A DNA stretch of 35,448 nt from an uncultured Candidatus Saccharibacteria bacterium (GCA_964413615.1 CAYPSL010000004.1:1-35448), one strand, 5' to 3'. Positions 8,020 to 35,448 are shown, counted from the first letter of the stretch. Notes: generated from the sequence alone by a model not told the origin. Numbers and translations are program-made.

Positions 8020-8748
8020 ATGCCACATGCCAAGAGAGTTCAGGCGCTTGTATTTTCTCGAAAAAACATCGGAGAGGCTGATAGGCTTGTGACATTTTTT
8101 ACAAAAGAGCAGGGGCTTGTTCGTGCTATTGCAAAGGGTGTTCGAAAAATTCCGTCTTCACGAGGAGGCCACTTGGAACCATTTACGAGCGTGCAGGTGC
8201 TTTTGCAAGAAAGTCGCGCAGGCGTATATGTGGGAGGGATAGAGACGGAACACTATTTTCAGGAGTTGCATGCGGATGCAGACGCTATAGCCCGAGTGCG
8301 TAGGGTTATATATGTATTTACGAAGCTGTTTGATGTAGGGCAGGCATTACCGGATGTTTTTGAGGCTATGGTATTGGCATGGAGCGCGTTTCCTCAAGTA
8401 TCTATAGAGAAGCGCAGGCTTGTAGAATCGTCGATGTATCTTCGGATTATGCAATATGCTGGTATTCTTCCTGAATTTCGTGCTTGTGCGGAGTGCGGGA
8501 AGTCTCGCCCAGAAGAAGCCGTAGTACTTTCTTCCCGCGAAGGGTTGTGGAGATGCTTGCCGTGCCACCCTACACTCCATGATGCAGTAAACTCTCTTTC
8601 TGTGCGTCAGTTTTCTGTATTAAGGTACATTGTTGATAAGCCGGACCATGCGCGCCGAATTGCGCTTTCGGATGAGGATGCGATGCATGTAGAAAGAACG
8701 GTTCATACTATTGTTGCGCATGCAATTGAAGAGCCCACACTTGCGTAG
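8020..8748 (+). CDS. recO: DNA repair protein RecO
   Basis: 242 aa. The N-terminal OB-fold pattern ALVFSRKNIGEADRLVTFFTKEQGLVRAIAKGVRK is typical of RecO. The zinc motif is C-AE-C ... C-LP-C. Confidence 0.9.
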   Translation: MPHAKRVQALVFSRKNIGEADRLVTFFTKEQGLVRAIAKGVRKIPSSRGGHLEPFTSVQVLLQESRAGVYVGGIETEHYFQELHADADAIARVRRVIYVFTKLFDVGQALPDVFEAMVLAWSAFPQVSIEKRRLVESSMYLRIMQYAGILPEFRACAECGKSRPEEAVVLSSREGLWRCLPCHPTLHDAVNSLSVRQFSVLRYIVDKPDHARRIALSDEDAMHVERTVHTIVAHAIEEPTLA

Positions 8749-16980: not shown

Positions 16981-17013
16981 ATAGAAAGAGTATATCGTAT
17001 TATGCAAAGCAAT

Positions 17014-17793
17014 ATGATAGATACTCATGCACATGTAAACGCATCGGAATTTGATGATGATCGAGACGATGTTATGCGTCGCGCACGGGAATCCGGGGTT
17101 GGTGCATGGATTGAGGTTGGTACAGACATTGCAAGCAGCAGGGCTGCAATTGAGCTAGCCAAAAAAACACCGGGAGTGTATGCATCTATTGGCGTGCATC
17201 CAGATGAAATTGCTGATTTGAATGAAGTGGATTGGAAAACGTTAGAATCATACGCATTGCACCATACCGTGTGCGCAATCGGGGAAGTGGGCTTTGATAC
17301 CTTTCGAGATGGTGTTATTGCTGATCAAGAAGTTGTGTTGCGCCGGTTTATAGCGCTTGCGCAGGCAGCTTGTAAGCCTATGATCTTTCATGTGCGTAGT
17401 GGAAATAGCGTAGACGCGCATTTTGAATTGCTTCGCGTACTTGCCTCGTATCCAAAATCAGAGCTTCCGCGGGGAGTTATCCATACATTTAGCGGAAATA
17501 CAGCTCAAGCAAAGCAGTATATTGAACTTGGCATGATGATCTCTTTTTCCGGAGTTATTACATTTAAAAATGCGGGCGAGTTGCCAGAAATTGCAAAGAG
17601 CATCCCACTTGATTCTGTGCTCGTAGAAACTGATTGCCCGTTTTTAACTCCCGAGCCCCACAGGGGAAAGAGGAACGAAATGGCATACGTAAAACATGTT
17701 ATCGAGAAGATTGCAGATATTCGAGCTGTGCCTTTTGCAGATGTGGAAAAGGCAACGGAAGAAAACGCAAAAAACCTATTTATTTTGGGATAA
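17014..17793 (+). CDS. tatD: TatD family metal-dependent hydrolase/DNase
   Basis: Canonical N-terminus MIDTHAH. Also GEVGFD, HVRS, IHTFSG and ETDCPFLTP. An upstream in-frame ATG at 17002 is possible. TATTAT at 16998-17003 lies 10 nt before ATG 17014. Confidence 0.9.
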   Translation: MIDTHAHVNASEFDDDRDDVMRRARESGVGAWIEVGTDIASSRAAIELAKKTPGVYASIGVHPDEIADLNEVDWKTLESYALHHTVCAIGEVGFDTFRDGVIADQEVVLRRFIALAQAACKPMIFHVRSGNSVDAHFELLRVLASYPKSELPRGVIHTFSGNTAQAKQYIELGMMISFSGVITFKNAGELPEIAKSIPLDSVLVETDCPFLTPEPHRGKRNEMAYVKHVIEKIADIRAVPFADVEKATEENAKNLFILG

Positions 17794-17818
17794 ATAAGGA
17801 TATTTTGGTTAGAAAACA

Positions 17819-17827
17819 TGCTACAAT
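17819..17827 (+). promoter_or_regulatory. extended -10 promoter element TGcTACAAT upstream of the giant gene
   Basis: TGC TACAAT at 17819-17827. GGAGAAGG (17866-17873) precedes the GTG start at 17881, so this gene, unlike its neighbours, has a leader of about 45-50 nt with an SD. Confidence 0.5.
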
Positions 17828-17880
17828 GTATGTATGCCTGTATATAAGGACGTAGTCTTATTTGTGGAGAAGGTTTTTCT

Positions 17881-20800
17881 GTGCCTGTAATTCAGTTCTC
17901 GCGATTTTTTAGAGGAGATGCATTTCGGTTCGGCCTTGCTCGCGCTCTTCCGTTCACTATTATTTTCACTCTTGTCTTTAGCGGACTCGGGTTGTTTTAT
18001 CCGGAGAAAGCTTTAGCTGCGACTACTACCTATAATTCTGGTTCTGGTAATTTCGTCGTTCCTGCTGGGGTTACAAGCTTGCAGATTGAGGGTTGGGGTG
18101 CCGGCGGTGGCGGAGGTTCTGGAGAAACGGGTGCAGGATCGGGCGATGATGGTGGTGGAGGTGGTGGAGGTGGGTACTTTATAGAAACTGCCGCTTCGGT
18201 TACCCCTGGGCAAAACGTAGCATATAGCGTAGGTGCCGGAGGTGCTGGGCGTGCGCTTGATAGTGCAACAAACGGAGGTAATGGGGGCGCAACTACGGTA
18301 TCAACATTTTCATTAACGGCAAATGGCGGTACGGGCGGACAGGCTATTGATAATGGCGGCGCAGGAGGCGCAGGAGGAACGGCGAGCGGAGGAGACACAA
18401 ACACTACCGGAAGCGCGGGTACATCTACTGCTGCCGGAGGTAACGGTGGAGCTTCTCCAAACGGTGGCGCTGCGCAAACAACGGATGGCGCTGCTGGTAA
18501 TGCGCCGGGTGGCGGAGGTGCGAGTTCCGATGAAAGCCCTGGAGATTCAGGCGCTGGTGCTGCGGGGCGGGTTACATTTACATACACAGCGAGCTTAAGT
18601 ATTTCTGGTACGGTGTATTCCGATGAAGGAAGCACTACACTTGGAAGTAAGGGAATCGCTCTTTCGGTAAACGGCGCAGCTGCATCTTCAACTACAACAG
18701 CTGCGGCAAACGGAACATACACCCTTACAGGCGTAACTGCAGTTGCGGGGGATGTTCTTACAATCTATTTAGATGGCGAAACGGAGGATGCAGTTACGGT
18801 AACTGTTGCAAACGGCTCAGATTTAACGGGTATAAATTTATATCAGGATCGATTAATTACTCGCCATGATAATTCCAGCTCTCTTACGAATACGAATTTG
18901 GATACTGCGGACAATAACGCAGATGCAGATATTACCGCTATTTACGGAGTAAGCGGAGGCACGCTTACGTTAGCTGCTGACAAGCATTTATATATCCCTG
19001 CAAGTAATACGTATGCTCCTGGAGGGAACATTTCTCTCTCCGGAAATTTTACGAATGCAGGAACATTTACAAAGGGTACAGGCACCGTCACGTTTACCAA
19101 GGGGTCTTCAACTCAAACAGTAAACGGAGGAAGTAGTAGTTTTTATAATCTTACCCACTCTGGCGCTGGTACGCTGCAGCTTGCAACCAGCACGCTTACG
19201 GTGAGCAATGCTCTTACCAATAGTGCGGGCATACTCGACCTTGCAGGAATAAACCTCACAACAACGGGAGCTACTATTAGCAATACCGCAACAATTCAGC
19301 TACAGGGAGGGGAAACGGTTACCGGTTTTACGAACGATACCGATTCCGGAACGGTTAATTATAACGGTACAACAAGTTATGCGAGCTTAGCTGCAGGAGC
19401 TACCTATTACAACCTTACCTTTAACGGAAGCGGGGGAACATGGGCTTCTGCTGCTTCTACTGCAGTATATGGCGCCCTTACAGTTACAACGGGCACATAC
19501 AATGCCAATGGGCAAACCACAGCCGTAACCGGCCTTACCACCGTATCTGGCGGAACCTACAGCGCGTCTACTGCAACACAAACATTAACCGGAGGGTTAA
19601 CTATTTCTTCAGGAACGTTTACAGCGTCAACGGGATTAGTTGGAATTACGGATAATCTTTTAGTATCCGGAGGAACATTTACGGGGTCTTCGGGAACAGT
19701 AGATGTTTTGGGCAATGTTACCCTTTCAAGCGGTACACTCACCGCTCCATCGGGAACATTCACCGTTGCAGGTAACTGGAGTAAGAGCGGAGGAACGTTT
19801 ACCCCGGGAACCGGCACGGTTACGTTTAACAGGGCGACGTCTATGTCCACGAGCGCAACTGCACCAACTTCAGCGGCAACAGTGACTATTCCCGCGAGGG
19901 GTATTTTTCCAGGAAGCGTAGTGCCTTGGACAAATCCATCGAATGCGCTTGCGCAAGATGGCGTGTATGCAACAGCTACAATTAATGACAGTGATGATAC
20001 TGAAGCGCTCTGGCTTAGAGGGTTTAATTTTCGCGTTCCATCAAATGCAACAATCGTAGGAGTAACTGCGGCTGTTCGACGTAGTGGAGGCTCTGTTGTT
20101 GATGATTACCTTATTCAACTTATTGTGAATGGCGTATCTACGGGGGATAATAAAGCAGATACAGCAACTTCATGGGATCCTCTTGCAACAGTAAGTTACG
20201 GAGGAGCTGCGGATGGATGGGGGGCTTCCCTTACCCCGGCGCTTGTAAAAGATAGTTCAAATTTTGGAATTGCTATTGCTGCAAACGGTGGGAGTAATGG
20301 TGATAACGCAACAGCGAGTATTGATAATGCTACGCTCGATATTGCATATACTCTTGCGTCGGGTGATCAAACAATTGATTCCGGAGGTAGTAGCTTCTAC
20401 AACGTCACTCACTCTGGCGCAGGTACACTGCAACTCTCTACAAGCGCCCTTACTGTTACCAACAACTTTGTTAACTCCGCTGGTACCTATGACGCAAACG
20501 GACTTGCAACAACCGTAACCGGCCTTACCACCGTATCTGGCGGAACCTACAGCGCATCAACTGCAACACAAACCTTTACTGGAGGCCTCACTGTTAGTGG
20601 AGGAACGCTCACCGGAAGCTCTGGCGCAATTGACGTAGATGGAGATGTTACCCTTTCAAGCGGTACACTCACCGCTCCATCAGGAACATTCACCGTTGCA
20701 GGTAACTGGGCAAAGAGCGGAGGAACGTTTACTCCGGGAACGAATACCGTAACGTTCGACAAAGGTTCCTCAACCCAAACCCTTAACTCTGGTTCTTCTA

Positions 20801-23800
20801 GCTTCTACAACGTCACCCACTCTGGTGCTGGTACGCTGCAGCTTGCAACCAGTACGCTCACAATTACGAATGCTCTTACAAATAGCGGAGGGATATTTGA
20901 TCTTGCGGGAGTAAACCTTACAACAACAGGAGCTACTATTAGTAATACTGCAATTATTCGGCTTCAGGGCGGAGAAACTCTTACAGGGTTTACGAACGAT
21001 ACTGATTCGGGAACAGTTACCTATAATGGAACAAGTACATATGCTAGCCTTGTTGCGGGAAATTCGTATTACAACCTTACTTTTGACGGAAGTGGAGGAA
21101 CCTGGACGCTTGCAGCTACTCTTGATGTAAACGCAAACCTTACGATTACTACCGGAACACTTGCTGCGGGAAGCAATGCTATTACGCTTGCGGGAAATTG
21201 GAGTAATGCAGCTTCTTTCACAGAAGGCACGGGAACGGTTACGTTTGATGGTACTGGAGCACAAACGCTTACCGGCGAAACATTTTACAACTTAACAATT
21301 AACAATACGGCTGCATCTCCGGATGACAGTACTGATGTTGATAGTAGTGCTGCGGTAACGGTTTCAAACACGTTAACGGTAACAGATGGCCAGTTCCAGC
21401 CTACGACGGCTTCAGATTTTTCTGCAGTTACTATTTCAACGAACGGTATTTTAAAGCCTGATAGTGGAGCAGCTATTACGGTATCGGGAGCATGGAGTAA
21501 TTCAGGAACATTTACTGCAAATTCTGGAACGGTAACGTTGGATGGCGTAACGCAAACTGTTACTGGTGCTACAACCTTTTATAATCTTTCCAAAACAGAG
21601 GCAACGGATAATTCAACGGATGAAACAGTTACCTTTACTGCCAGCACGACATATACGATTACCAATACCCTTACCTTAAACGGAAGAGACACAAACGATA
21701 GAATTAATATCTTGTCGAGCAGTGGAGGGTCGAGATTTACTTTGGATGTAACAGGCGCTGCGCAATCGGGAGACTATTTGGATGTTACAGATTCCCAAGC
21801 TTCTACAAACAATATTACGTGTACGGATTGTGTGAATGGCGGAGGGAATGATGATGGAGAAGCTGCGCCTCATTGGATATTTATTACATCTTCTTCTATT
21901 GCGGGTACGGTATATTCCGATGAAGGGACAACTCCTCTTGGAAGTATGGGAATTGCCGTTTCTGTTAACGGTGCTGCTGCAGCCGCCACTACAACGAGTG
22001 CAGGGGATGGAACGTATACACTCTCTAACGTTGCGGTAGCGGCAGGGGATATTCTTACAATTTACCTTGATGGGAATACAGAAAAAGCAGTTACGGTCAC
22101 CGCAGCTACGGGGAATAACCTTACCGGAATCAATCTGTATCAGGATCGATTAATTACTCGGCATGATAATTCAGGTTCGCTCACGAATGCTAATCTTGAA
22201 ACGGCGGAAACAAATGCTGATTCGGATATCTCTAGTATTTACGCAGTAAGCGGAGGCACGCTTACGTTAGCCGCTGATAAGCATTTATATATTCCAGCTA
22301 GCCATACCTATGCTCCGGGAGGCGATATTTCTCTTTCGGGGAATTTTACGAATATTGGAACATATACAACAGGAACAAACACTGTAACGTTCACAAAGGG
22401 TGCGAGCACTCAAACGCTAAGGTCCGGCGGCTCCTCTTTCTACAACGTCACTCACTCTGGCGCAGGTACACTGCAACTCTCTACAAGCGCCCTTACTGTT
22501 ACCAACAACTTTGTTAACTCCGCTGGTACCTATGACGCAAACGGACTTGCAACAACCGTAACCGGCCTTACCACCGTATCTGGCGGAACCTACAGCGCAT
22601 CAACTGCAACACAAACCTTTACTGGAGGCCTCACTGTTAGTGGAGGAACGCTCACCGGAAGCTCTGGCGCAATTGACGTAGATGGAGATGTTACCCTTTC
22701 AAGCGGTACACTCACCGCTCCATCAGGAACATTCACCGTTGCAGGTAACTGGGCAAAGAGCGGAGGAACGTTTACTCCGGGAACGAATACCGTAACGTTC
22801 GACAAAGGTTCCTCAACCCAAACCCTTAACTCTGGTTCTTCTAGCTTCTACAACGTCACCCACTCTGGTGCTGGTACGCTGCAGCTTTCTACTAATGCCC
22901 TTACTGTTACAAATAACTTTACGAGTTCTGCAGGTACTTATGATGCAAACGGACTTGCAACGAGTGTAACCGCAACTACAACTGTTACTGATAGTACATA
23001 TACCGGCTCAACTGCTGCACAAACATTTTCCGGTACACTTTCATTAACAGGCGCAACTCTTACCACTACGGGTGCAGGGTCTTTCATACTAGGAAGCAAT
23101 GTTACGGGAAATTCTTCTGCCACTTCTTCTACAATCAGTGGCTCGCTTGATCTTGGCGGTTCAACAAGGACATTTACCATTGCGGATGGCGCCGCAACCA
23201 ATGACATTAGTATTTCCGCTGTTATTAGTAATGGCGGTGTTACAAAAGCAGGCGCTGGCAAAATGGTGCTATCTGGGACAAATACCTACACAGGAGCCAC
23301 TACTGTTTCTGCGGGTATTCTTAATATTCAAAATGTTAACGCAACAGGAACAACTGCAGGGGGAGTATCGGTAACAAGCGGAGCTGCGCTTGAAGTGCAG
23401 GGTGGAATTGCAGTCGGAGCCGAAGCTATTACATTAAACGGAACGGGAATATCTTCCGGAGGTGCACTTCGCAACATTAGCGGCGCAAACTCATTCTCGG
23501 GAACAATTACGTTAGGTTCGGCATCTTCTGTTGCGGTTGATGCAGGAAGCTTGGCCTTAAGCGGAGTTATTAGCGGGGGAAGCAACAGCTTCACAAAGAC
23601 TGGGCCTGAGACCCTCACCTTAAGCAATACGGCAACGGTCGGGAACTTTACTATATCTGCCGGTACAGTAGCTGCGGCAAGCAATACTATTAATGTGGGA
23701 GGAACTTGGAGTAACTCGGGAACGTTTACTCCAAGCACAAGCACGCTTACATTAACGGGTACATCTACATTTGCTGATACTACGTCGCTCTACAATCTCA

Positions 23801-26655
23801 CGATAAATGGAGTAGGGATTACGGTTACGCTCGGGGCTACTTTGAACGTGAGCAATAACCTTACGATTACTGCGGGTACGTTGGATGTATCTGCATCAAA
23901 CTATGCAATGAACATTGGTGGTAATTTCAGTAATGCAGGAACGCTTACTTCGCGATCTGGAACGACAACCTTTAATGGAACGAACCAAACTATTTTAGGG
24001 TCAGTAACATTTTATAATTTTGTAAAAACTGTCGTATCCGCTGCAACATTAACATTTGAGGCGGGATCAACGCAGACAATAAACGGAACGCTTACGCTGC
24101 AGGGCGCAGTTGGGCAACTATTAAGCTTAGTTTCTTCTGTTACGAATTCCGTATGGCATATTAACCCGATATCTTCACGAGTTGTTTCGTATTTGAATGT
24201 AAAAGACTCAACGAATGATGATGCGACAGAGATTGATTGTACGAATAACTGTACCGATTCGTTGAATAACACCAGGTGGTTATTCTCTATTCCTGATACT
24301 ACTGATCCTACGGTTTCCACATTTAGCCCAGCAGACAATGCAACGGGAGTATCTCAAACGGCAAATCTTGTAATTACGTTTGATGAATCAGTAACTGCTG
24401 TGGCTGCCAAGAACTTAACAATCAAAAAAACATCTGATAATTCCACCGTAGAAACAATAGCTGTAACGGGAGGCCTTGTGTCGGGAAGCGGAAGTGCGAC
24501 AATTACCGTAAACCCATCAACTACTCTTGATTTAAGTACTGAGTACTACATTCTTATTGATTCCGGTGCGTTCATTGATGGAGCTTCCAATGAATACGCG
24601 GGAATTGCGAGCACTACTACATGGAACTTTACTACTGCTGCATCTGATTCTACTGCCCCAACAGTTATAACTCTTGATCCAGAAGATGGTGAGACGGGCG
24701 TATCTCCGACAGCAAATCTTGTTATTACGTTTAGTGAAAATGTAAGCGCAGTTTCTGGCAAGAATATATACATTAAGAAGAATTCGGATGATTCTACGGT
24801 AGAAACTATCGCTGCGGACGCTTCGAAAGTAACAATAAGCGGAGACGAAGTAACTATTAATCCCGGAATTACACTTGACGATACTACTGCGTATTATGTG
24901 CTTATTGATTCCGGCGCGTTTATTGATGGAGCTAGCAATGCATATACCGGAATGAATTCTGATGAGAATTGGAATTTTACAACAGCGGATACAACAGCTC
25001 CTACTCTTTCTAGTGTGAATCCGGCTGATAACTCAACAGGAGTATCTGTAACCACGAACCTTGTACTTACATTTAATGAGGCAGTGACAAGGGTTTCGGG
25101 AAAATACGTTACGATTAGGAAGACTTCTGATAACAGTCTTGTTGAAGCAATCTTGGTAACGGGCAGTAATGTGTCAGGAAATGGAACTTCTATTATTACT
25201 TTGAACCCTGCTGTAACGCTTGATCAGAATGAAGGGTACTACATTACTATTAATTCCGGCGCGTTTATAGATGCTGCAAGTAACGAATACGCAGGGGTAT
25301 CTAGTGCAACTGCTTGGAATTTTACAACAGCGGATACAACTCCCACTCCAACTCCTGATCCAAGCGCAACGCCGACTCCTGGCCCTACGAGCGACCCCAC
25401 TCCAACACCTGATCCAACTCCGACAATCACCCCATGCTCATTCTGGGACATCTTGTGCTCAACTCCCACTCCAACTCCTGATCCAAGCGCAACGCCGACT
25501 CCTATAGTTCTCACTACTACCCCTACGCCAACCCCGCCAGTTAGTGTTGAGCAGAGGGTCACAAGGTTTATTACTGGTCTTTCTGGATTGAGTAGGGAAG
25601 ATATCGTGAAGTTTGCTCAAGAGCAGGGACCTACTATTGCGGCAACTGCCGTTGGGGCAACAGTAGCTTCTAGTATTCCGCTTCTGGCAAATATTTTCCC
25701 GCAACTTGCAAATGTTCTTCAGTTCTTAGGAGCTGCGCTTTCGCTCCATCGCCGGAAGACTCGATGGGGAATTGTAGTTGATAGCGATCTTGGTCGGCCT
25801 ATTGCTCATGCGGTTGTGCAAGTATTTGATGCAAAGTTTCATCAATTAAAAGACACGCAAGTAACAAATGCTGATGGGCAATTTGGATTCCTTCTGCCTC
25901 CCGGGAAATATTATGTTGTGGTTAATCAGCCCGGGTTCGTTTTCCCTGCACGTAAAAAACCTCCAACTGTGCTTCATTCCGGGGAGCGTATTTACTTGGG
26001 GGAAGAATTTGAGTGTGATGCTCGCGATCCGAATAAAATCCCGCGACTTATTGTGCCTATGGATCGTGAAGAGAAAACTCCACTCGCAAATATGTTGATT
26101 TGGAGATATGTAGAAAGATTCCTCGCATTTGTAGACGGGCTCGGAATTGTTCTCCTTATTGTGGGCGCAACTATTAACACGTTCTTCCTACTAACTGTTC
26201 CTGGTTACCTTAATATTTTGTTCGAAATTATTTATCTGCTGTTGTTTAGCGTGAAGATGTACATTTTAGTTTCTCATCAGCAAGGCCTTGGCGATGTTGT
26301 GGATGCAAAAACAAAATTACCGATCGATCTTGCAATTATGAGGTTGTATAACGCAAAAACAAATCGAATTGTTCAAACAAGAGTAACGAATATTCATGGT
26401 AAATTCTTCGTATTAGTACCAAAGGGTATATACACCGCGTCTGTTTCTAAGCAAGGGTACAAAACGATTACACAAGAAAATCTTTCTATCTCTGGAAAGA
26501 AATCTCAAGCACTGGAACTTCATTTCAAGCTTGAACAAGAGGGTGCAAAAAAAGAAGAAGTAGTATTTCCGAATATTGAAGACACAGAAAACATCGCGGT
26601 ACTAAAAAATAATTCCAACGGAATACAACTTCCTGGCAAGAAAAATAAAATTTAA
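17881..26655 (+). CDS. giant (2,924 aa) secreted/surface protein
   Basis: Uninterrupted 8.8-kb ORF with a GTG start behind an SD. Signal peptide ...PEKALA|A (cleavage after 18018). Domain order: Gly-rich domain, two duplicated beta-helix arms, PATR repeats, 3 Ig-like (Big_5/SbsA-type) domains, PT linker, C-terminal TM/CarboxypepD_reg module. Sub-regions are listed separately. Confidence 0.93.
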   Translation: MPVIQFSRFFRGDAFRFGLARALPFTIIFTLVFSGLGLFYPEKALAATTTYNSGSGNFVVPAGVTSLQIEGWGAGGGGGSGETGAGSGDDGGGGGGGGYFIETAASVTPGQNVAYSVGAGGAGRALDSATNGGNGGATTVSTFSLTANGGTGGQAIDNGGAGGAGGTASGGDTNTTGSAGTSTAAGGNGGASPNGGAAQTTDGAAGNAPGGGGASSDESPGDSGAGAAGRVTFTYTASLSISGTVYSDEGSTTLGSKGIALSVNGAAASSTTTAAANGTYTLTGVTAVAGDVLTIYLDGETEDAVTVTVANGSDLTGINLYQDRLITRHDNSSSLTNTNLDTADNNADADITAIYGVSGGTLTLAADKHLYIPASNTYAPGGNISLSGNFTNAGTFTKGTGTVTFTKGSSTQTVNGGSSSFYNLTHSGAGTLQLATSTLTVSNALTNSAGILDLAGINLTTTGATISNTATIQLQGGETVTGFTNDTDSGTVNYNGTTSYASLAAGATYYNLTFNGSGGTWASAASTAVYGALTVTTGTYNANGQTTAVTGLTTVSGGTYSASTATQTLTGGLTISSGTFTASTGLVGITDNLLVSGGTFTGSSGTVDVLGNVTLSSGTLTAPSGTFTVAGNWSKSGGTFTPGTGTVTFNRATSMSTSATAPTSAATVTIPARGIFPGSVVPWTNPSNALAQDGVYATATINDSDDTEALWLRGFNFRVPSNATIVGVTAAVRRSGGSVVDDYLIQLIVNGVSTGDNKADTATSWDPLATVSYGGAADGWGASLTPALVKDSSNFGIAIAANGGSNGDNATASIDNATLDIAYTLASGDQTIDSGGSSFYNVTHSGAGTLQLSTSALTVTNNFVNSAGTYDANGLATTVTGLTTVSGGTYSASTATQTFTGGLTVSGGTLTGSSGAIDVDGDVTLSSGTLTAPSGTFTVAGNWAKSGGTFTPGTNTVTFDKGSSTQTLNSGSSSFYNVTHSGAGTLQLATSTLTITNALTNSGGIFDLAGVNLTTTGATISNTAIIRLQGGETLTGFTNDTDSGTVTYNGTSTYASLVAGNSYYNLTFDGSGGTWTLAATLDVNANLTITTGTLAAGSNAITLAGNWSNAASFTEGTGTVTFDGTGAQTLTGETFYNLTINNTAASPDDSTDVDSSAAVTVSNTLTVTDGQFQPTTASDFSAVTISTNGILKPDSGAAITVSGAWSNSGTFTANSGTVTLDGVTQTVTGATTFYNLSKTEATDNSTDETVTFTASTTYTITNTLTLNGRDTNDRINILSSSGGSRFTLDVTGAAQSGDYLDVTDSQASTNNITCTDCVNGGGNDDGEAAPHWIFITSSSIAGTVYSDEGTTPLGSMGIAVSVNGAAAAATTTSAGDGTYTLSNVAVAAGDILTIYLDGNTEKAVTVTAATGNNLTGINLYQDRLITRHDNSGSLTNANLETAETNADSDISSIYAVSGGTLTLAADKHLYIPASHTYAPGGDISLSGNFTNIGTYTTGTNTVTFTKGASTQTLRSGGSSFYNVTHSGAGTLQLSTSALTVTNNFVNSAGTYDANGLATTVTGLTTVSGGTYSASTATQTFTGGLTVSGGTLTGSSGAIDVDGDVTLSSGTLTAPSGTFTVAGNWAKSGGTFTPGTNTVTFDKGSSTQTLNSGSSSFYNVTHSGAGTLQLSTNALTVTNNFTSSAGTYDANGLATSVTATTTVTDSTYTGSTAAQTFSGTLSLTGATLTTTGAGSFILGSNVTGNSSATSSTISGSLDLGGSTRTFTIADGAATNDISISAVISNGGVTKAGAGKMVLSGTNTYTGATTVSAGILNIQNVNATGTTAGGVSVTSGAALEVQGGIAVGAEAITLNGTGISSGGALRNISGANSFSGTITLGSASSVAVDAGSLALSGVISGGSNSFTKTGPETLTLSNTATVGNFTISAGTVAAASNTINVGGTWSNSGTFTPSTSTLTLTGTSTFADTTSLYNLTINGVGITVTLGATLNVSNNLTITAGTLDVSASNYAMNIGGNFSNAGTLTSRSGTTTFNGTNQTILGSVTFYNFVKTVVSAATLTFEAGSTQTINGTLTLQGAVGQLLSLVSSVTNSVWHINPISSRVVSYLNVKDSTNDDATEIDCTNNCTDSLNNTRWLFSIPDTTDPTVSTFSPADNATGVSQTANLVITFDESVTAVAAKNLTIKKTSDNSTVETIAVTGGLVSGSGSATITVNPSTTLDLSTEYYILIDSGAFIDGASNEYAGIASTTTWNFTTAASDSTAPTVITLDPEDGETGVSPTANLVITFSENVSAVSGKNIYIKKNSDDSTVETIAADASKVTISGDEVTINPGITLDDTTAYYVLIDSGAFIDGASNAYTGMNSDENWNFTTADTTAPTLSSVNPADNSTGVSVTTNLVLTFNEAVTRVSGKYVTIRKTSDNSLVEAILVTGSNVSGNGTSIITLNPAVTLDQNEGYYITINSGAFIDAASNEYAGVSSATAWNFTTADTTPTPTPDPSATPTPGPTSDPTPTPDPTPTITPCSFWDILCSTPTPTPDPSATPTPIVLTTTPTPTPPVSVEQRVTRFITGLSGLSREDIVKFAQEQGPTIAATAVGATVASSIPLLANIFPQLANVLQFLGAALSLHRRKTRWGIVVDSDLGRPIAHAVVQVFDAKFHQLKDTQVTNADGQFGFLLPPGKYYVVVNQPGFVFPARKKPPTVLHSGERIYLGEEFECDARDPNKIPRLIVPMDREEKTPLANMLIWRYVERFLAFVDGLGIVLLIVGATINTFFLLTVPGYLNILFEIIYLLLFSVKMYILVSHQQGLGDVVDAKTKLPIDLAIMRLYNAKTNRIVQTRVTNIHGKFFVLVPKGIYTASVSKQGYKTITQENLSISGKKSQALELHFKLEQEGAKKEEVVFPNIEDTENIAVLKNNSNGIQLPGKKNKI
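18019..18591 (+). other. N-terminal glycine-rich domain of the giant protein
   Basis: TYNSGSGNFVVPAGVTSLQIEGWGAGGGGGSG...GGGGGGGGYF...PGQNVAYSVGAGGAG...GGNGG...GGTGG...GRVTFTY. It resembles the Y-x-G-x-F-x-VP-x-GV...WGAGGGG glycine-rich domains seen in phage-tail-fibre-like and other surface proteins. Confidence 0.6.
18598..19140 (+). repeat. module A, copy 1 (small beta-sandwich + first beta-helix rungs)
   Basis: SISGTVYSDEG...LTIYLDGETEDAVTVT...INLYQDRLITRHDN...LAADKHLYIPAS. The paralogous copy lies exactly 3,297 nt (1,099 codons) downstream and is roughly four-fifths identical at protein level by eye. Confidence 0.85.
19141..19443 (+). repeat. module B, copy 1
   Basis: FYNLTHSGAGTLQLATSTLTVSNALTNSAGILDLAGINLTTTGATISNTATIQLQGGETVTGFTNDTDSGTVNYNGT...YYNLTFNGSGGTW. 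The paralogue lies 1,662 nt (554 codons) downstream. Confidence 0.85.
19831..20394 (+). other. single-copy insertion domain between duplicated beta-helix modules
   Basis: ...VVPWTNPSNALAQDGVYATATINDSDDTEALWLRGFNFRVPSNATIVGVTAAVRRSG...YLIQLIVNGVSTGDNKA...SWDPLATVSYGGAADGWGASLTPALVKDSSNFGIAIAA...ASIDNATLDIAY. It has alternating beta-strand character, is not repeated elsewhere in the protein, and matches no family I recognise. Confidence 0.6.
20395..20844 (+). repeat. 450-bp direct repeat, copy 1 (identical to 22438-22887 on base-by-base reading)
   Basis: I compared the two copies line by line and found no mismatch from TTCTACAACGTCACTCAC... to ...GGTACGCTGCAGCTT. The antisense ORFs 20547-20762 and 22590-22805 in the supplied track are 100% identical. 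The offset is 2,043 nt, or 681 codons. Confidence 0.92.
20803..21105 (+). repeat. module B, copy 2
   Basis: FYNVTHSGAGTLQLATSTLTITNALTNSGGIFDLAGVNLTTTGATISNTAIIRLQGGETLTGFTNDTDSGTVTYNGT...YYNLTFDGSGGTW. Confidence 0.85.
21895..22437 (+). repeat. module A, copy 2
   Basis: SIAGTVYSDEG...LTIYLDGNTEKAVTVT...INLYQDRLITRHDN...LAADKHLYIPAS. In-frame paralogue of 18598-19140. Confidence 0.85.
22438..22887 (+). repeat. 450-bp direct repeat, copy 2
   Basis: Same as 20395-20844. A third, diverged copy of the core (with one extra 20-aa rung) lies at about 19523-19830. Confidence 0.92.
23100..23700 (+). other. autotransporter-associated beta-strand (PATR-type) repeat region
   Basis: NGGVTKAGAGKMVLSGTNTYTGATTVSAGILNIQN, GGALRNISGANSFSGTITLGS, SGGSNSFTKTGPETLTLSNTATVGNFTISAGTV. 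These match the G-x-L-x-K-x-G-x-G-x-L-x-L-x-G-x-N-x-YTG-x-T-x-V-x-x-G-x-L consensus of PATR repeats. Confidence 0.75.
24295..25335 (+). repeat. three tandem Ig-like domains (SbsA/Big_5-type), about 115 aa each
   Basis: The unit D(T/S)T(D/A)PTV..(F/L)(S/D)P.D..TGVS.TANLVITF.E.V......K.+.IKK.SD.S.VE.I...........+T+NP...L...T.YY+LIDSGAFIDGASN.Y.G......WNFTTA occurs three times, starting near 24295, 24643 and 24988. Confidence 0.85.
25338..25503 (+). repeat. Pro/Thr-rich linker containing two identical 43-bp direct repeats (25338-25380 and 25461-25503)
   Basis: AACTCCCACTCCAACTCCTGATCCAAGCGCAACGCCGACTCCT occurs twice, 123 nt apart, and encodes TPTPTPDPSATPTP. The copies flank the only Cys pair of the linker (C-SFWDIL-C). 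Confidence 0.85.
25546..26655 (+). other. C-terminal membrane module of the giant protein
   Basis: Layout: hydrophobic segment, CarboxypepD_reg-like domain, hydrophobic helices, second CarboxypepD_reg-like domain. Hydrophobic GPTIAATAVGATVASSIPLLANIF..VLQFLGAALSL then HRRKTR. Beta-sandwich 1: WGIVVDSDLGRPIAHAVVQVFD...TNADGQFGFLLPPGKYYVVVNQPGFVF. Helices: GLGIVLLIVGATINTFFLL and NILFEIIYLLLFSVKMYILV. Beta-sandwich 2: GDVVDAKTKLPIDLAIMRLYNAKTNRIVQTRVTNIHGKFFVLVPKGIYTASVSKQGYKT. It is collinear with and homologous to 34063-35047. Confidence 0.8.
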
Positions 26656-26784
26656 AAATTATTTTTCAAAAATTTATTTATTTTTTTATTTGTGCACAGC
26701 ATGAAATATTTTTCTTTGTGTTACACTAGAGTTTCAAGTTACGAATTGAACATTTAAAAAATTAAAATAACAAGGAGAATTCCA

Positions 26785-27540
26785 ATGGATGAAATGAGGG
26801 ATACGCATATTCCTCCATCCGGAGGAATATCTAACGATCAAATTGCTGTAGCAATTATGCTGTTGAATCAGAATGTTAAAGCTATTAAAGACCAGCTTTC
26901 TTCTCGGGACCATGTAGTATCTTCGGATCGGCCGAGAAAGTATTTCAAGAAAAAGATTGTAGCTCCGCCAACGACAAAGCTTTCCACTGTTTTTGTTTCT
27001 GATGATAGGGACCCGCACATTGGCAGCTCTGACGGAGTAAGCGTTCTTGAAGTAGAATTGGGCTTTGTGTGTTTTCATCGTCAAATGAAATTCAGACAAG
27101 TGCTTCATGCGTTTACGAGAGGGGTGCTTGTTCAGGGGAAGTCTCTTCAAATTCAGAACGGATGCGGGAGGGATCATCTTGAGGCTCTGCTTTTGCAAAA
27201 TCCAGAAATCGTAGAACAGTGCAGAGCGATTGTTTGCGTAGGAGAGTCTAAGACCTTAGCTGATGGCACCCTTCGCGTACCTTGTTTGGATTCGAAAGGA
27301 GCGTTCTTTTTTCCTGCAACGAATGTATGGTCTGAAGATGTGTGGTTTATGGGAATTGTGAGGCCGATTGTTCGATCAAGTGAAGAACATTCAGTTCCTC
27401 TTGAATTGCTTCATCTCTATGAACAGACATACGTTCCTTTTGCGCCGGATATAGAATCTCCCAAAACAGTTGTTCCTTGTAAGGTTGATACTGTCGTTGC
27501 TTGTGGCGATGATACGAAAACAACCGAAAACTTACCTTAA
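26785..27540 (+). CDS. hypothetical protein (no recognisable family)
   Basis: 251-aa ORF. AAGGAG at 26772-26777 lies 7 nt before the ATG. It is preceded by a 129-nt very AT-rich spacer and followed by an intrinsic terminator. Cys-rich, with no TM helix or signal peptide evident. Confidence 0.65.
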   Translation: MDEMRDTHIPPSGGISNDQIAVAIMLLNQNVKAIKDQLSSRDHVVSSDRPRKYFKKKIVAPPTTKLSTVFVSDDRDPHIGSSDGVSVLEVELGFVCFHRQMKFRQVLHAFTRGVLVQGKSLQIQNGCGRDHLEALLLQNPEIVEQCRAIVCVGESKTLADGTLRVPCLDSKGAFFFPATNVWSEDVWFMGIVRPIVRSSEEHSVPLELLHLYEQTYVPFAPDIESPKTVVPCKVDTVVACGDDTKTTENLP

Positions 27541-27907: not shown

Positions 27908-27947
27908 GAGCCATGTACAGAATTATCTGTCATGGCTCTCTTTTTTT
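27908..27947 (+). terminator. rho-independent terminator
   Basis: GAGCCATG(T)ACAG-aattat-CTGTCATGGCTC forms a 12-bp stem with one bulge (27908-27938), followed by TCTTTTTTT (27939-27947). It lies inside the track's N-terminal extension of rarA (27913) and therefore argues against that start. Confidence 0.85.
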
Positions 27948-27950
27948 ATG

Positions 27951-27956
27951 TATACT
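27951..27956 (+). promoter_or_regulatory. -10-like hexamer TATACT, 7 nt upstream of the rarA ATG
   Basis: TATACT at 27951-27956, then 7 nt (taaattt), then ATG 27964, with no SD. Confidence 0.4.
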
Positions 27957-27963
27957 TAAATTT

Positions 27964-29250
27964 ATGAAACGAACAGAATCCAAACAAGAGGGATTATATA
28001 CGCCGCTTGCTGCTCGTTTACGGCCCAAAACTCTGGACGATTTTCGTGGCCATGTGGAAGTGTTGGGAAAAGGAAAATCACTTCGGCGAGCCATTGAGCG
28101 CGGCGCTGTTGGGTCGTTGATTCTATGGGGGCCGCCAGGGGTTGGAAAGACTACGCTTGCTGAGCTTATTGCGCGCAATATGAGTGCTGCTATCGAGCGA
28201 GTAAGTGCGGTAACGGCAGGAGTAAAAGACCTACGCGACGTACTTGCTCGTGCAGCGGAGTGGAGAAAGATACAAAAACCTACCGTGCTGATTGTGGATG
28301 AAATTCATCGGTTCAATAAAAGCCAGCAAGATGTTCTGCTGCCTGCCGTTGAGGAGGGGCTTGTTATTATGATTGGCGCTACTACGGAAAACCCGTATTT
28401 CGAAGTAGTCTCTGCGTTGTTATCTCGCGCACAGGTAGTGCGAATGGAAATACTGAAAGACAAAGATATGAAGACAATACTGAAGCGCGCAGAGGCAGAA
28501 TATCCAATGCTTCATATATTACCTGATGCAATAGATGCAATTGTGAAGCGCGCTGGGGGCGATGCACGCCGTGCGCTTAATATATTGGAGCGTGCAACAG
28601 GCGGTAAGAAGCGAGGCGATATATCTGCTGCTGACGTAGAGTCTGCTGCGCATGGCAGCGCGATTCATTACGATAAAACGGGAGACATTCATTACGATAC
28701 AATTTCCGCTTTTATTAAAAGCTTAAGAGGGTCCGATGCTGATGCGGCGCTGTTTTATTTGTTTCGCATGTTGGCCGCGGGGGAAGATCCAAAGTTTATA
28801 GTTCGTCGGATGTTTATATTTGCCTCCGAAGATATTGGGAATGCAGATCCCCATGCGCTTATGGTGGCATCTGCTGCAGGGCATGGGCTTGAATGGGTGG
28901 GATTGCCGGAAGCGGAATATATACTTGCGCATGCTGCGTGCTATTTAGCAGCAGCGCCAAAAAGCGATAGTGTGAAAAATGCGATGTATGCGGTAAAAAA
29001 CGACGTTGCACTTCATGGGAATGATACTCCTCCCGGGCACATTACAAACGCTCCTATTGAAGGGATGAAAACGCACGGAAGAGGGGTTGGGTATAAAAAT
29101 CCTCACGAGTTTCCTTCGCATGTAGCGCCCCAGCAGTATCGTCCATCTTCCGTTCAGTCGCACATATATTACATTCCTGGCGAGGAAGGCTTTGAAAAGG
29201 AGGTAAAACGCAGGATAGAGGCTGCTCGCAAGGTGATATACGGGGAATAA
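27964..29250 (+). CDS. rarA: replication-associated recombination protein A (MgsA/RarA AAA+ ATPase)
   Basis: MKRTESKQEGLYTPLAARLRPKTLDDFRGH is the canonical RarA N-terminus. Walker A GPPGVGKTTLA. Walker B VLIVDEIHRFNK. Also GATTENPYFEV, then the MgsA C-terminal domain (DAALFYLFRMLAAGEDPKFIVRR, GNADP). Confidence 0.93.
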   Translation: MKRTESKQEGLYTPLAARLRPKTLDDFRGHVEVLGKGKSLRRAIERGAVGSLILWGPPGVGKTTLAELIARNMSAAIERVSAVTAGVKDLRDVLARAAEWRKIQKPTVLIVDEIHRFNKSQQDVLLPAVEEGLVIMIGATTENPYFEVVSALLSRAQVVRMEILKDKDMKTILKRAEAEYPMLHILPDAIDAIVKRAGGDARRALNILERATGGKKRGDISAADVESAAHGSAIHYDKTGDIHYDTISAFIKSLRGSDADAALFYLFRMLAAGEDPKFIVRRMFIFASEDIGNADPHALMVASAAGHGLEWVGLPEAEYILAHAACYLAAAPKSDSVKNAMYAVKNDVALHGNDTPPGHITNAPIEGMKTHGRGVGYKNPHEFPSHVAPQQYRPSSVQSHIYYIPGEEGFEKEVKRRIEAARKVIYGE

Positions 29251-35100: not shown

Positions 35101-35448
35101 ATGCAAGCAATTATCTTAATGGCGGGGAAGGGCACCCGCATGGCAAAGTACTATGAAGGCCCAAAGCAATTATTGCCTGTTGCAGGCAAGCCGGTGGTTC
35201 ACTATCTCTTAGATAGTTTGCCTTCTGAAATAACGGAACTTATTTTTATTGTTGGCGGTCCGCACGAAGAAAAGATTCGCACTCATTTTGCGAGCGGAGA
35301 ATATAACGGCAGACCGATTACGTTTATTCGCCAAGATGAGCAGCTGGGCTTGCCCCATGCGTTTGGCATGGCAAAAGATGTTATTCGCGATAAATGGTTT
35401 GGAAGCGTTGCGGATGATATTTTTGATCCAGTTGCAATTCAAAAGCTC
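35101..35448 (+). CDS. sugar-phosphate nucleotidyltransferase (glucose-1-phosphate thymidylyl/uridylyltransferase-like), 5' partial at the window edge
   Basis: My own translation of an ORF absent from the track because it has no stop inside the window: MQAIILMAGKGTRMAKYYEGPKQLLPVAGKPVVHYLLDSL...FIRQDEQLGLPHAFGMAKD. It carries the G-x-G-T-R-x signature and the (K)QLLPV motif of the NTP_transferase family. Confidence 0.85.
   Translation, partial: MQAIILMAGKGTRMAKYYEGPKQLLPVAGKPVVHYLLDSLPSEITELIFIVGGPHEEKIRTHFASGEYNGRPITFIRQDEQLGLPHAFGMAKDVIRDKWFGSVADDIFDPVAIQKL

Follow-up and report, generated by a model that had tools for sequence, protein, structure and literature searches.

A gene for a giant surface protein carries two copies of a 450-bp segment that agree at every base. 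The pair is probably a real and very recent product of homologous recombination within one gene, in which a cassette bounded by the junction motif J was copied between the two arms of the protein. Recent copying between modules is an ordinary event in repetitive adhesin genes. The window, i.e. the whole stretch of DNA analysed (35,448 nt), is the entire contig C4 of a metagenome-assembled genome (MAG) of 57 contigs and 642 kb with 100-N scaffolding gaps, and the repeat structure is known from this one contig, which was probably assembled from short reads. A LeuRS comparison with genome contigs placed the organism among Patescibacteria of the Parcubacteria/Paceibacteria type, at identities of at most 63%. 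As a patescibacterium, it probably lives attached to host cells. The genes near the giant ORF are housekeeping genes (tRNA synthetases, RecO, TGT, M16 peptidase, TatD and RarA). Exact-protein matches were found for neither of the two genes adjoining it. RecO is located at 8020-8748 of the window, and RecA was found at G000:C18:3607-4386.

The features of the gene are listed in Table 1. The encoded protein begins with a signal-like hydrophobic segment, followed by a Gly-rich domain, two beta-solenoid arms, PATR repeats, three Big_5 Ig-like domains, a Thr/Pro linker and a C-terminal TM/CarboxypepD_reg anchor. Pfam matches comprised Big_5, CarboxypepD_reg and PATR, the last at aa 1787-1816 and at one further site. 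The hydrophobic segment at the N-terminus and the TM/CarboxypepD_reg region at the C-terminus suggest a single-chain surface protein attached to the cell. An autotransporter passenger of the PATR beta-helix type was rejected, because the C-terminal beta-barrel translocator is absent and the C-terminus consists of a helical TM segment with CarboxypepD_reg. The AlphaFold model containing R (pLDDT 89.1, pTM 0.85) is a confident, continuous beta-solenoid; R1, at model residues 25-174, is all-beta and part of this solenoid, with pLDDT 90-97 per 10-residue block. Because R lies within a confidently modelled continuous solenoid, an in-register copy would be structurally tolerable. Foldseek returned no significant solved structural homologue; its beta-helix matches were non-significant, with IgA1 protease as the best (E 0.14). 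In the protein collection the giant protein formed a singleton cluster at 90% identity, on one contig. Candidate antisense genes at 20770-21264 and 18030-18722 matched no family and were discarded.

Table 1. Features of the giant surface-protein gene and its repeated modules (coordinates in the window).
Feature	Coordinates	Strand	Description	Basis
Giant gene	17881..26655	+	Surface-protein gene, 2,924 aa	ORF list, translation, Pfam
A1 + B1	18600..19497	+	Older paralogues of A2 and B2; set the background divergence	Self-BLAST, dS
C1	19492..19831	+	Third R-type module, arm 1; mosaic	Alignment, patch statistics
U	19831..20394	+	Single-copy domain immediately upstream of R1	No paralogue in self-BLAST
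R1	20395..20844	+	First perfect copy, aa 839-988; R-type body with a J motif at either end	Repeat finding, direct comparison, self-BLAST
J_a	20395..20436	+	Junction motif FYNVTHSGAGTLQL, start of R1	Identical to J_c, 22438-22479
J_b	20803..20844	+	Junction motif, end of R1	Identical to J_d, 22846-22887
Y	20845..22437	+	Single-copy spacer, 1,593 nt: B2 body (to ~21159), further rungs, arm-1 cap (~21577-21882), A2 (21897-22437)	Self-BLAST
R2	22438..22887	+	Second perfect copy, aa 1520-1669; second arm, directly after A2	450/450 vs R1
R3'	22888..23145	+	Diverged R-type body directly after R2	Repeat finding, self-BLAST, dS

A sequence-only reading of this DNA had reported that 20395-20844 and 22438-22887 are free of mismatches. 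Base comparison and self-BLAST confirmed this at all 450 positions, and repeat finding agreed that the exact match runs for 450 nt and no further. The two copies are offset by 2,043 nt, or 681 codons, and start in frame 0 of the ORF. No other internal repeat above 120 bp in the whole MAG is 100% identical. The edges of the match are sharp: the two Ser codons that precede it read AGT AGC at R1 and TCC TCT at R2, and the sequences that follow R1 and R2 differ. None of the 122.7 synonymous sites differs between the copies (95% upper bound ~2.4%), as against pS 0.55-0.63 and dS 0.99-1.40 in the older pairs A1/A2, B1/B2 and R/R3'. This contrast excludes chance identity, and protein-level selection cannot explain a complete lack of change at ~123 synonymous sites. 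Either the event took place recently, or differences between copies that are at least ~99% alike were lost in assembly.

The repeat consists of one 408-nt module period plus an extra copy of the conserved 42-nt motif J (FYNVTHSGAGTLQL), so that both of its edges fall on a J motif. These edges coincide with the limits of J-based paralogy. J_a and J_b match at 36 of 42 positions, their longest common exact run being 14 nt, and self-BLAST aligned 20391-20435 with 20799-20843 at 89% identity and an offset of 408; J_B1 lies at 19141-19182. The earlier statement that all offsets are multiples of 3 was correct for all 16 self-BLAST offsets. However, an in-frame offset is uninformative by itself, because copies that encode the same peptide within one ORF are necessarily a multiple of 3 apart.

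The remaining modules are visibly diverged, as the sequence-only reading had described. A1 and A2 (18600-19208 versus 21897-22505; offset 3,297) are 72.9% identical with a dS of 1.40, and B1 and B2 (19059-19497 versus 20721-21159; offset 1,662) are 74.5% identical with a dS of 0.99. R3' shares 62% nucleotide identity with R over 22846-23145 (dS ~1.2); since it is diverged and directly follows R2, the two form a tandem, but an old one. The arm-1 cap within Y is homologous to a second cap at 24010-24315 (31% identity, E 2e-6). The proposed third copy was also found, as the mosaic module C1, ~79-80% identical overall with patches of 86-95%. Its near-identical patches at 19523-19584 (2 mismatches in 62 nt) and 19715-19811 (5 in 97) have a pS of 0.10-0.20 and sit in diverged sequence with a pS of 0.87-0.98 and a 60-nt indel; at 25% divergence, the probability of five or fewer mismatches in 97 nt is 2e-7. 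These patches carry mismatches and therefore cannot be assembler products. Read as conversion footprints independent of R1/R2, they show real conversion in this gene. Together with the contrast between 0 of ~123 synonymous changes and a dS of 1.0-1.4, they support the earlier proposal of recent duplication, gene conversion or ongoing homogenisation. The direct repeats of the gene comprise a single 450-nt perfect pair, two patches 62-97 nt long that are 95-97% identical, the 42-nt J motifs (86% identical) and, for the rest, modules that are 62-77% identical. The literature on recombination rate versus homology length offered nothing directly usable.

The mechanism and direction of copying, like the occurrence of rearrangements in the first place, are inferred. 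A 136-aa beta-solenoid cassette with J on each side would have been copied from one arm into the other. This could have happened by gene conversion that overwrote an older R-type module, or by templated repair of a break: a J that had been broken would have aligned out of register with the pair of Js on either side of the donor, so that one 408-nt period was inserted. The presence of RecA and RecO supports copying by recombination. The event would belong to a concerted evolution of the gene's R-type modules that is still under way. That the 2,043-bp unit was duplicated in tandem was rejected, because Y is single-copy; moreover, the sequence after R2 is unlike that after R1. As a by-product, the copying would have left a 450-bp perfect direct repeat that RecA-type recombination could use. 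The unit exchangeable between R1 and R2 is Y plus one R, so an exchange would remove exactly 681 codons (B2, cap 1, A2 and one R) or add them again in tandem, and the resulting proteins of 2,243 or 3,605 aa would retain the frame and the anchor.

An error of assembly is a less probable explanation, but one of appreciable weight. The repeat structure could be wrong in detail in one of three forms: two copies ~99% alike may have been merged by bubble-popping and used twice, which would overstate their identity; the R-Y loop may occur more than once, or in part of the population, with the minimal path emitted; or the contig may be chimeric, built from co-occurring strains with different module orders. 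Giant genes are known to be fragmented by repeats in short-read assemblies (bioRxiv 10.1101/2023.11.21.568195; PMC9704523), congener contigs often stop within homologous genes, and an exact repeat of 450 bp is longer than usual short reads. Assemblers can turn copies that are ~99% identical into 100% identical ones, and they traverse simple loops the minimum number of times. The many contigs and scaffolding gaps of the MAG are in keeping with such errors, and its contig ends elsewhere overlap one another at only 92-99% identity, which suggests a mixture of strains. The topology, however, argues for a real repeat: Y both enters and leaves R, so that some molecule contains R-Y-R, unless Y is chimeric. 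With 6 differences in 42 positions and no shared exact run above 14 nt, J_a and J_b are too dissimilar for a de Bruijn graph with k >=21 to have joined an R body into one J; these differences and the loop topology argue against a small-k chimeric insertion of R2, which was rejected. Furthermore, the other contigs of the MAG contain no portion of the giant gene, the C1 mosaic is evidence of real conversion in the same gene, and merged copies would still mean a very recent biological event.

The sequence-only reading had also proposed a contingency locus. Its arithmetic holds, in that an exchange would involve 681 codons and keep the frame and the C-terminal anchor, but there is no sign of a selected switch, and the comparison with relatives went against it. 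We consider it rather unlikely that selection maintains the pair as a switch of length or valency like that of Periscope proteins or cagY, by which a population would keep the repeats identical and toggle between a two-arm form of 2,924 aa, a fused one-arm form of 2,243 aa and longer forms, varying reach or antigenicity on the host cell. Each possible exchange would indeed be in frame and keep the signal peptide, the unit that would be deleted forms a neat structural block (B2 rungs, arm-1 cap and A2), and the protein is exposed at the surface of a bacterium that, from what is generally known of Patescibacteria, is probably host-attached. A precedent is provided by cagY (PMC2194252), and others by Periscope proteins, including a beta-helical PATR case (PMC9704523). 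Yet there are just two copies, which are not in tandem, while the tandem neighbour R3' is old. A comparable repeat was absent from 12 giant-gene loci of relatives, where many contigs break inside these genes, and no matching repeat was seen in 13 congeners. Nothing in the sequence appears to point to a programmed switch, be it simple-sequence tracts, inverted repeats, a recombinase gene or repeats in congeners. TRF gave only two tiny 9-nt Gly-codon repeats and no array, and 17601-26800 contains no homopolymer of 8 or more, so a simple-sequence-repeat contingency locus was rejected. A site-specific inversion or excision switch was likewise discarded, with no inverted repeats in 20000-23300, no recombinase nearby and housekeeping genes as neighbours. 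One recent conversion accounts for the data without selection. It is still far less credible that the identity is kept by selection on protein or RNA, or that the pair is a mobile element or the template and variable repeat of a DGR. DGRs are common in CPR genomes, but the only support for these explanations is the existence of the repeat itself. All ~123 synonymous sites are identical where similarly constrained modules have a pS of at least 0.55, and R is an ordinary in-frame solenoid module with the diverged paralogues C1 and R3'. With no mismatches at all, A-specific ones are lacking too, and the window ORFs scanned included no reverse transcriptase, transposase or integrase. The synonymous-site, paralogue-alignment and inverted-repeat results effectively refute this whole group of explanations.

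Recombinational copying of a cassette, the explanation that we favour, has parallels in known systems. In cagY of Helicobacter pylori, intragenic direct repeats rearrange (Aras et al. 2003, PMC2194252). [quoted passage not shown] However, cagY has very many repeats and size variants shown within hosts, as opposed to one long perfect pair and short patches here, and its protein family and organism are unrelated. Periscope proteins (SasG/Aap, Rib/alpha C, SHIRT, and ShdA as the PATR beta-helix example; PMC9704523) resemble the giant protein as single-chain surface proteins with an anchor at one end and high DNA identity between modules, and recombination has been proposed to lengthen or shorten their stalks. 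They consist of tandem arrays of highly identical domains (>50 residues each), with copy numbers varying between close strains, whereas here two non-adjacent copies flank the unique spacer and the adjacent R3' is only 62% identical. Streptococcal M protein, as described in PMC9704523 (citing Hollingshead et al. 1987), varies in size via recombination between intragenic repeats, which likewise makes a surface protein longer or shorter in frame; in that account the repeats are short tandem coiled-coil repeats and the variants were observed experimentally, in contrast to a 136-aa solenoid cassette known from sequence. A further parallel is the concerted evolution, by ectopic gene conversion between paralogous modules, of giant repetitive bacterial surface proteins, including giant genes of Omnitrophota and CPR (bioRxiv 10.1101/2023.11.21.568195 for the gene class), in which near-identical tracts are likewise patchworked within diverged in-frame modules; the beta-helix repeat family of the present gene also occurs in Omnitrophota, Andersenbacteria and other MAGs. 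The tract found here is unusually long, perfect and exactly one junction-to-junction cassette.

Provided that the pair is genuine, it shows the copying of modules within a giant CPR surface protein almost as it happens, with the joints placed at a conserved solenoid junction motif. This would help to explain how huge, fast-evolving host-contact proteins are assembled and remain partly homogeneous, and it makes the locus a concrete target for asking about within-population variation in adhesin length in ultra-small episymbionts. Protein lengths derived from MAGs are untrustworthy at this site without long reads.

Neither the 13 congeners nor 27 further relatives contain DNA that matches the R body; the highest identity, 75%, was to B2 only, and no genome or contig more than 75% DNA-identical to this region was found. 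In the nearest congener (G003; TatD 88% identical), the syntenic orthologue ends at a contig end after 207 aa, and a second giant gene begins at a contig end, on a rung-J motif. Contig ends also fell within homologous genes at both ends of G003:C45, at the start of G001:C15, and at the ends of G001:C37 and G011:C44.

A scan of JGI metagenomes yielded 76 loci, of which the best was only 66-68% identical in amino acids. Direct repeats of >=100 bp and >=90% identity occurred in 11 of 77 metagenomic loci with homologous beta-helix genes (743 kb). In at least two of these 11 (L022 and L036) the repeats lie within the beta-helix genes themselves, and the L022 repeat has its edges at the same rung-FYN motif; this habit of the family supports the copying explanation that we favour. 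We think it improbable that the rung-plus-FYN junction motif is a general recombination joint in the beta-helix giants of Patescibacteria and Omnitrophota and that, in addition, the pair switches a two-arm to a one-arm adhesin. If true, solenoid cassettes would be copied, inserted and removed via this joint, giving a Periscope-like switch built from dispersed repeats in an episymbiont.

R1 and R2, the two repeats in the giant gene, were identical at 450 of 450 positions in a direct comparison within the assembled contig. The match stopped sharply, with not one further base at either edge; the copies were offset by 2,043 nt, and the repeat started at a codon boundary of the open reading frame. 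The sequence-only reading had described this in-frame pair among older, diverged modules, and self-alignment bore out that description as well. A1/A2 (offset 3,297 nt) shared 72.9% identity over 612 nt, B1/B2 (offset 1,662 nt) shared 74.5% over 439 nt, and the third copy of the R-type module was recovered as C1. When the whole MAG (642 kb, 57 contigs, approximately 89% completeness; the window is its complete contig C4) was compared with itself, R1/R2 was the sole internal repeat above 120 bp with 100% identity. No parts of the giant gene were found on the remaining MAG contigs. LeuRS comparison placed the organism among the Patescibacteria.

Positions of features in the window and the sequences to which they correspond
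Feature	Position (nt)	Description
recO	8020-8748
Giant gene	17881-26655 (+)	2,924-aa surface protein
C1	19492-19831	R-type module
C1 patch	19523-19584	2 mismatches to R in 62 nt
C1 patch	19715-19811	5 mismatches to R in 97 nt
AlphaFold model m71c52e75f6a5	20323-21915	aa 815-1345 (U tail, R1, B2, cap 1)
R1	20395-20844	perfect repeat, copy 1
Y	20845-22437	segment between R1 and R2
Cap 1 module	21577-21900	arm-1 terminal module
R2	22438-22887	perfect repeat, copy 2
Cap 1 homologue	24010-24315	31% identity to cap 1, E 2e-6
Big_5 domains	24293-25340	three, in tandem
44-nt repeat	25337-25380 and 25460-25503	exact, in frame, offset 123
Orphan gene	26785-27540	251-aa protein
rarA (mgsA)	27913-29250
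Contig end	35138-35448	overlaps C41:1-311

Both ends of R (either copy) carry a 42-nt junction motif, J, which encodes FYNVTHSGAGTLQL. Within R, the initial 45 nt match the final 45 nt at 89% identity (offset 408), and the two J cores agree at 36 of 42 positions. Hence, the 450 nt consist of one 408-nt module period and one extra J. Upstream of the two copies the encoded peptide is still alike (...QT.(D/R)SGGSS); the DNA is unlike, with Ser-Ser codons AGT AGC before R1 and TCC TCT before R2. Downstream, R1 is followed by a B-type body paralogous to B1, and R2 by R3', a diverged R-type body (62% nucleotide identity to R over 300 nt; 73-77% over the 187-268 nt aligned by BLAST). From its sequence, the pair appears to be one J-to-J cassette copied into a second location. 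A fresh tandem duplication of a 2,043-nt unit is ruled out, because Y is single-copy.

Synonymous and non-synonymous changes were counted by the Nei-Gojobori method. Values of dS and dN were 1.40 and 0.17 for A1/A2, 0.99 and 0.15 for B1/B2, and about 1.2 and 0.375 for R/R3', whereas both were 0 for R1/R2 (0 of 122.7 synonymous and 0 of 327.3 non-synonymous sites changed). For R1/R2, synonymous divergence was at most approximately 2.4% (95% upper bound), against 55-63% in the other module pairs. Protein-level constraint can therefore not explain the identity, since the synonymous sites are unchanged too, unlike in the other pairs. Set against a dS of 0.99-1.40 in the older pairs, these counts support the earlier suggestion of recent conversion or homogenisation.

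Aligned to R, C1 is a mosaic, with two nearly matching patches set in diverged sequence. In wider C1 patches pS was 0.10-0.20, compared with 0.87-0.98 and a 60-nt indel in the surrounding sequence. Because the patches carry mismatches, they cannot be assembler products. C1 provides independent evidence that copying among R-type modules is habitual in the giant gene. The most economical explanation is that a J-bounded cassette was copied by homologous recombination. This could have occurred by conversion over an older R-type unit. Alternatively, one J may have broken and been repaired by misaligned pairing with the two Js on either side of the donor; such a repair would add exactly one period. 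The MAG encodes RecA, and the window RecO and RarA. The genes for the latter two, which serve recombination and replication restart, share the 35-kb contig of the giant gene, amid tRNA synthetase genes, which is probably a coincidence.

The sequence-only reading had also raised an assembly problem, and this caveat stands. The assembly may misstate the pair, in that identity is about 99% rather than 100%, or that the loop is present several times or in part of the population. Some MAG contigs contain 100-N gaps, several contig ends overlap imperfectly, which suggests co-assembled strain variants, and congener contigs often end within homologous genes; giant genes in short-read assemblies are known to be broken up by repeats (bioRxiv 10.1101/2023.11.21.568195; PMC9704523). 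An outright artefact is nevertheless argued against by two observations: Y leads out of R and back into it, so that some molecule must hold R-Y-R, and the J copies that start and end R1 have no exact run longer than 14 bases in common, so that no k of at least 21 could have spliced the R body into a single J. The contig-end overlaps span 90-336 bp at 92-99% identity (C4-C41-C17, with C41:4817-5152 against C17:12395-12060; C3-C38, C1-C11, C15-C22, C25-C44 and C47-C50). Such overlaps suggest that the contigs could be joined into chains, and that closely related strains are mixed in the bin where contigs break.

The giant protein consists of a hydrophobic, signal-like N-terminus, a Gly-rich domain, two long repetitive arms rich in Thr, Gly and Ser, PATR repeats, three Big_5 Ig-like domains, a Thr/Pro linker, and a C-terminal segment with membrane helices and CarboxypepD_reg domains. 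Homology between the cap 1 module and a later module supports the two-arm layout. We modelled part of the first arm with AlphaFold, using a 45-row alignment of in-frame segments from related loci. The model was confident (mean pLDDT 89.1, pTM 0.85) and consisted of beta structure throughout, its short strands recurring as in a solenoid; R1 occupied residues 25-174 (pLDDT 90-97 per 10-residue block). Foldseek found no significant match to this model in the PDB (best: IgA1 protease, E 0.14), and the non-significant matches listed included many beta-helix proteins (autotransporter passengers, HMW1, Ag43, VacA, tailspikes). Hence, no solved structure seems to represent this repeat family, which is found in giant proteins of CPR and Omnitrophota. 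It also seems to lack a Pfam model; only PATR matched, in another part of the protein. Members of the family occur widely in giant proteins of Omnitrophota, Andersenbacteria, Bacteroidota and others, none of them a close relative (local identity 30-70%, partial coverage). The Big_5 domains form an older, diverged repeat block (period approximately 345-351 nt, DNA identity only 67-77%), unlike the perfect R pair. A second exact direct repeat, of 44 nt, lies in the Thr/Pro-rich linker (TPTPTPDPSATPTP) between these domains and the C-terminal anchor.

The proposal of a length switch held in its arithmetic: exchange between R1 and R2 would lose or duplicate 681 codons, comprising the B2 body, further rungs, the arm-1 cap, A2 and one R. 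The computed products of 2,243 or 3,605 aa retain signal and anchor, and their join would sit in register within solenoid rungs. In-frame offsets are not evidence of design, however, because they are automatic for copies in one reading frame. A contingency device was unsupported. There were no simple-sequence tracts or homopolymers of at least 8 nt at the giant-gene locus, no inverted repeats around the R pair, and no recombinase gene among the neighbours (tRNA synthetases, RecO, TGT, a peptidase, a transporter, TatD and RarA); antisense reading frames matched no families. The perfect copies number only two and are non-adjacent. From E. coli genetics, deletion between passive direct repeats of 450 bp that lie 1.6 kb apart would be expected at approximately 1e-5 to 1e-4 per generation in RecA+ cells. 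Given such a rate, rare length variants would be likely here, whether important or not.

The closest mechanistic precedents are H. pylori cagY, in which recombination between dispersed direct repeats always preserves the frame and yields size variants in hosts (PMC2194252), Periscope proteins, whose highly identical tandem repeats grow and shrink by homologous recombination and which include a beta-helical PATR example (PMC9704523), and streptococcal M protein, for which size variation is cited in the latter paper. The R pair is alike in principle, but the tandem array of near-identical domains that defines Periscope proteins is absent. Moreover, cagY and Periscope proteins are both defined by population-level variation, whereas the R pair is known from one assembled contig. 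The giant gene joins the known class of recombination-shaped, repetitive surface-protein genes, with a neat cassette geometry.

In the giant genes of relatives (12 loci, 144 kb), no repeats of at least 100 bp above 90% identity were found, and the R body had no DNA match in 13 other species of the genus. The nearest congener, G003, has a TatD gene (88% identical) followed by a syntenic giant gene with an 88% identical N-terminus. Its contig ends after 207 aa, which makes a comparison of architecture impossible. In this locus (L011; G003:C45, 1-6239, against window 17002-18500), the TatD alignment (88% at the amino acid level) begins at residue 48 of the window protein, leaving the first 47 residues unaligned. 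G003 also carries, upstream of TatD, an additional giant gene and a distant homologue (27%) of the window's orphan protein, so that local gene order differs between the two species.

Of 77 loci that contain related beta-helix genes (743 kb in all), 11 had direct repeats of at least 100 bp and at least 90% identity. Three of these had repeats of at least 98% identity (L087, L029, L038), apparently outside beta-helix modules. At least two of the 11 (L022, L036) carried repeats inside such modules, with edges at the rung-FYN motif in L022. Recent intragenic copying is thus recurrent, though not universal, in this class of proteins. Among metagenomic homologues of the R1-B2 segment, the best-scoring one (L016:2096-3238, Ga0209542_10002160; 53% identity) contains one in-frame TAA, which could reflect a pseudogene, a sequencing error or a pair of adjacent genes. 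Locus L015 on a JGI metagenome contig (Ga0209542_10000122) and L098 of congener G001 (G001:C7) gave identical tblastn statistics for the same segments; hence, both probably derive from one organism or from two nearly identical ones.
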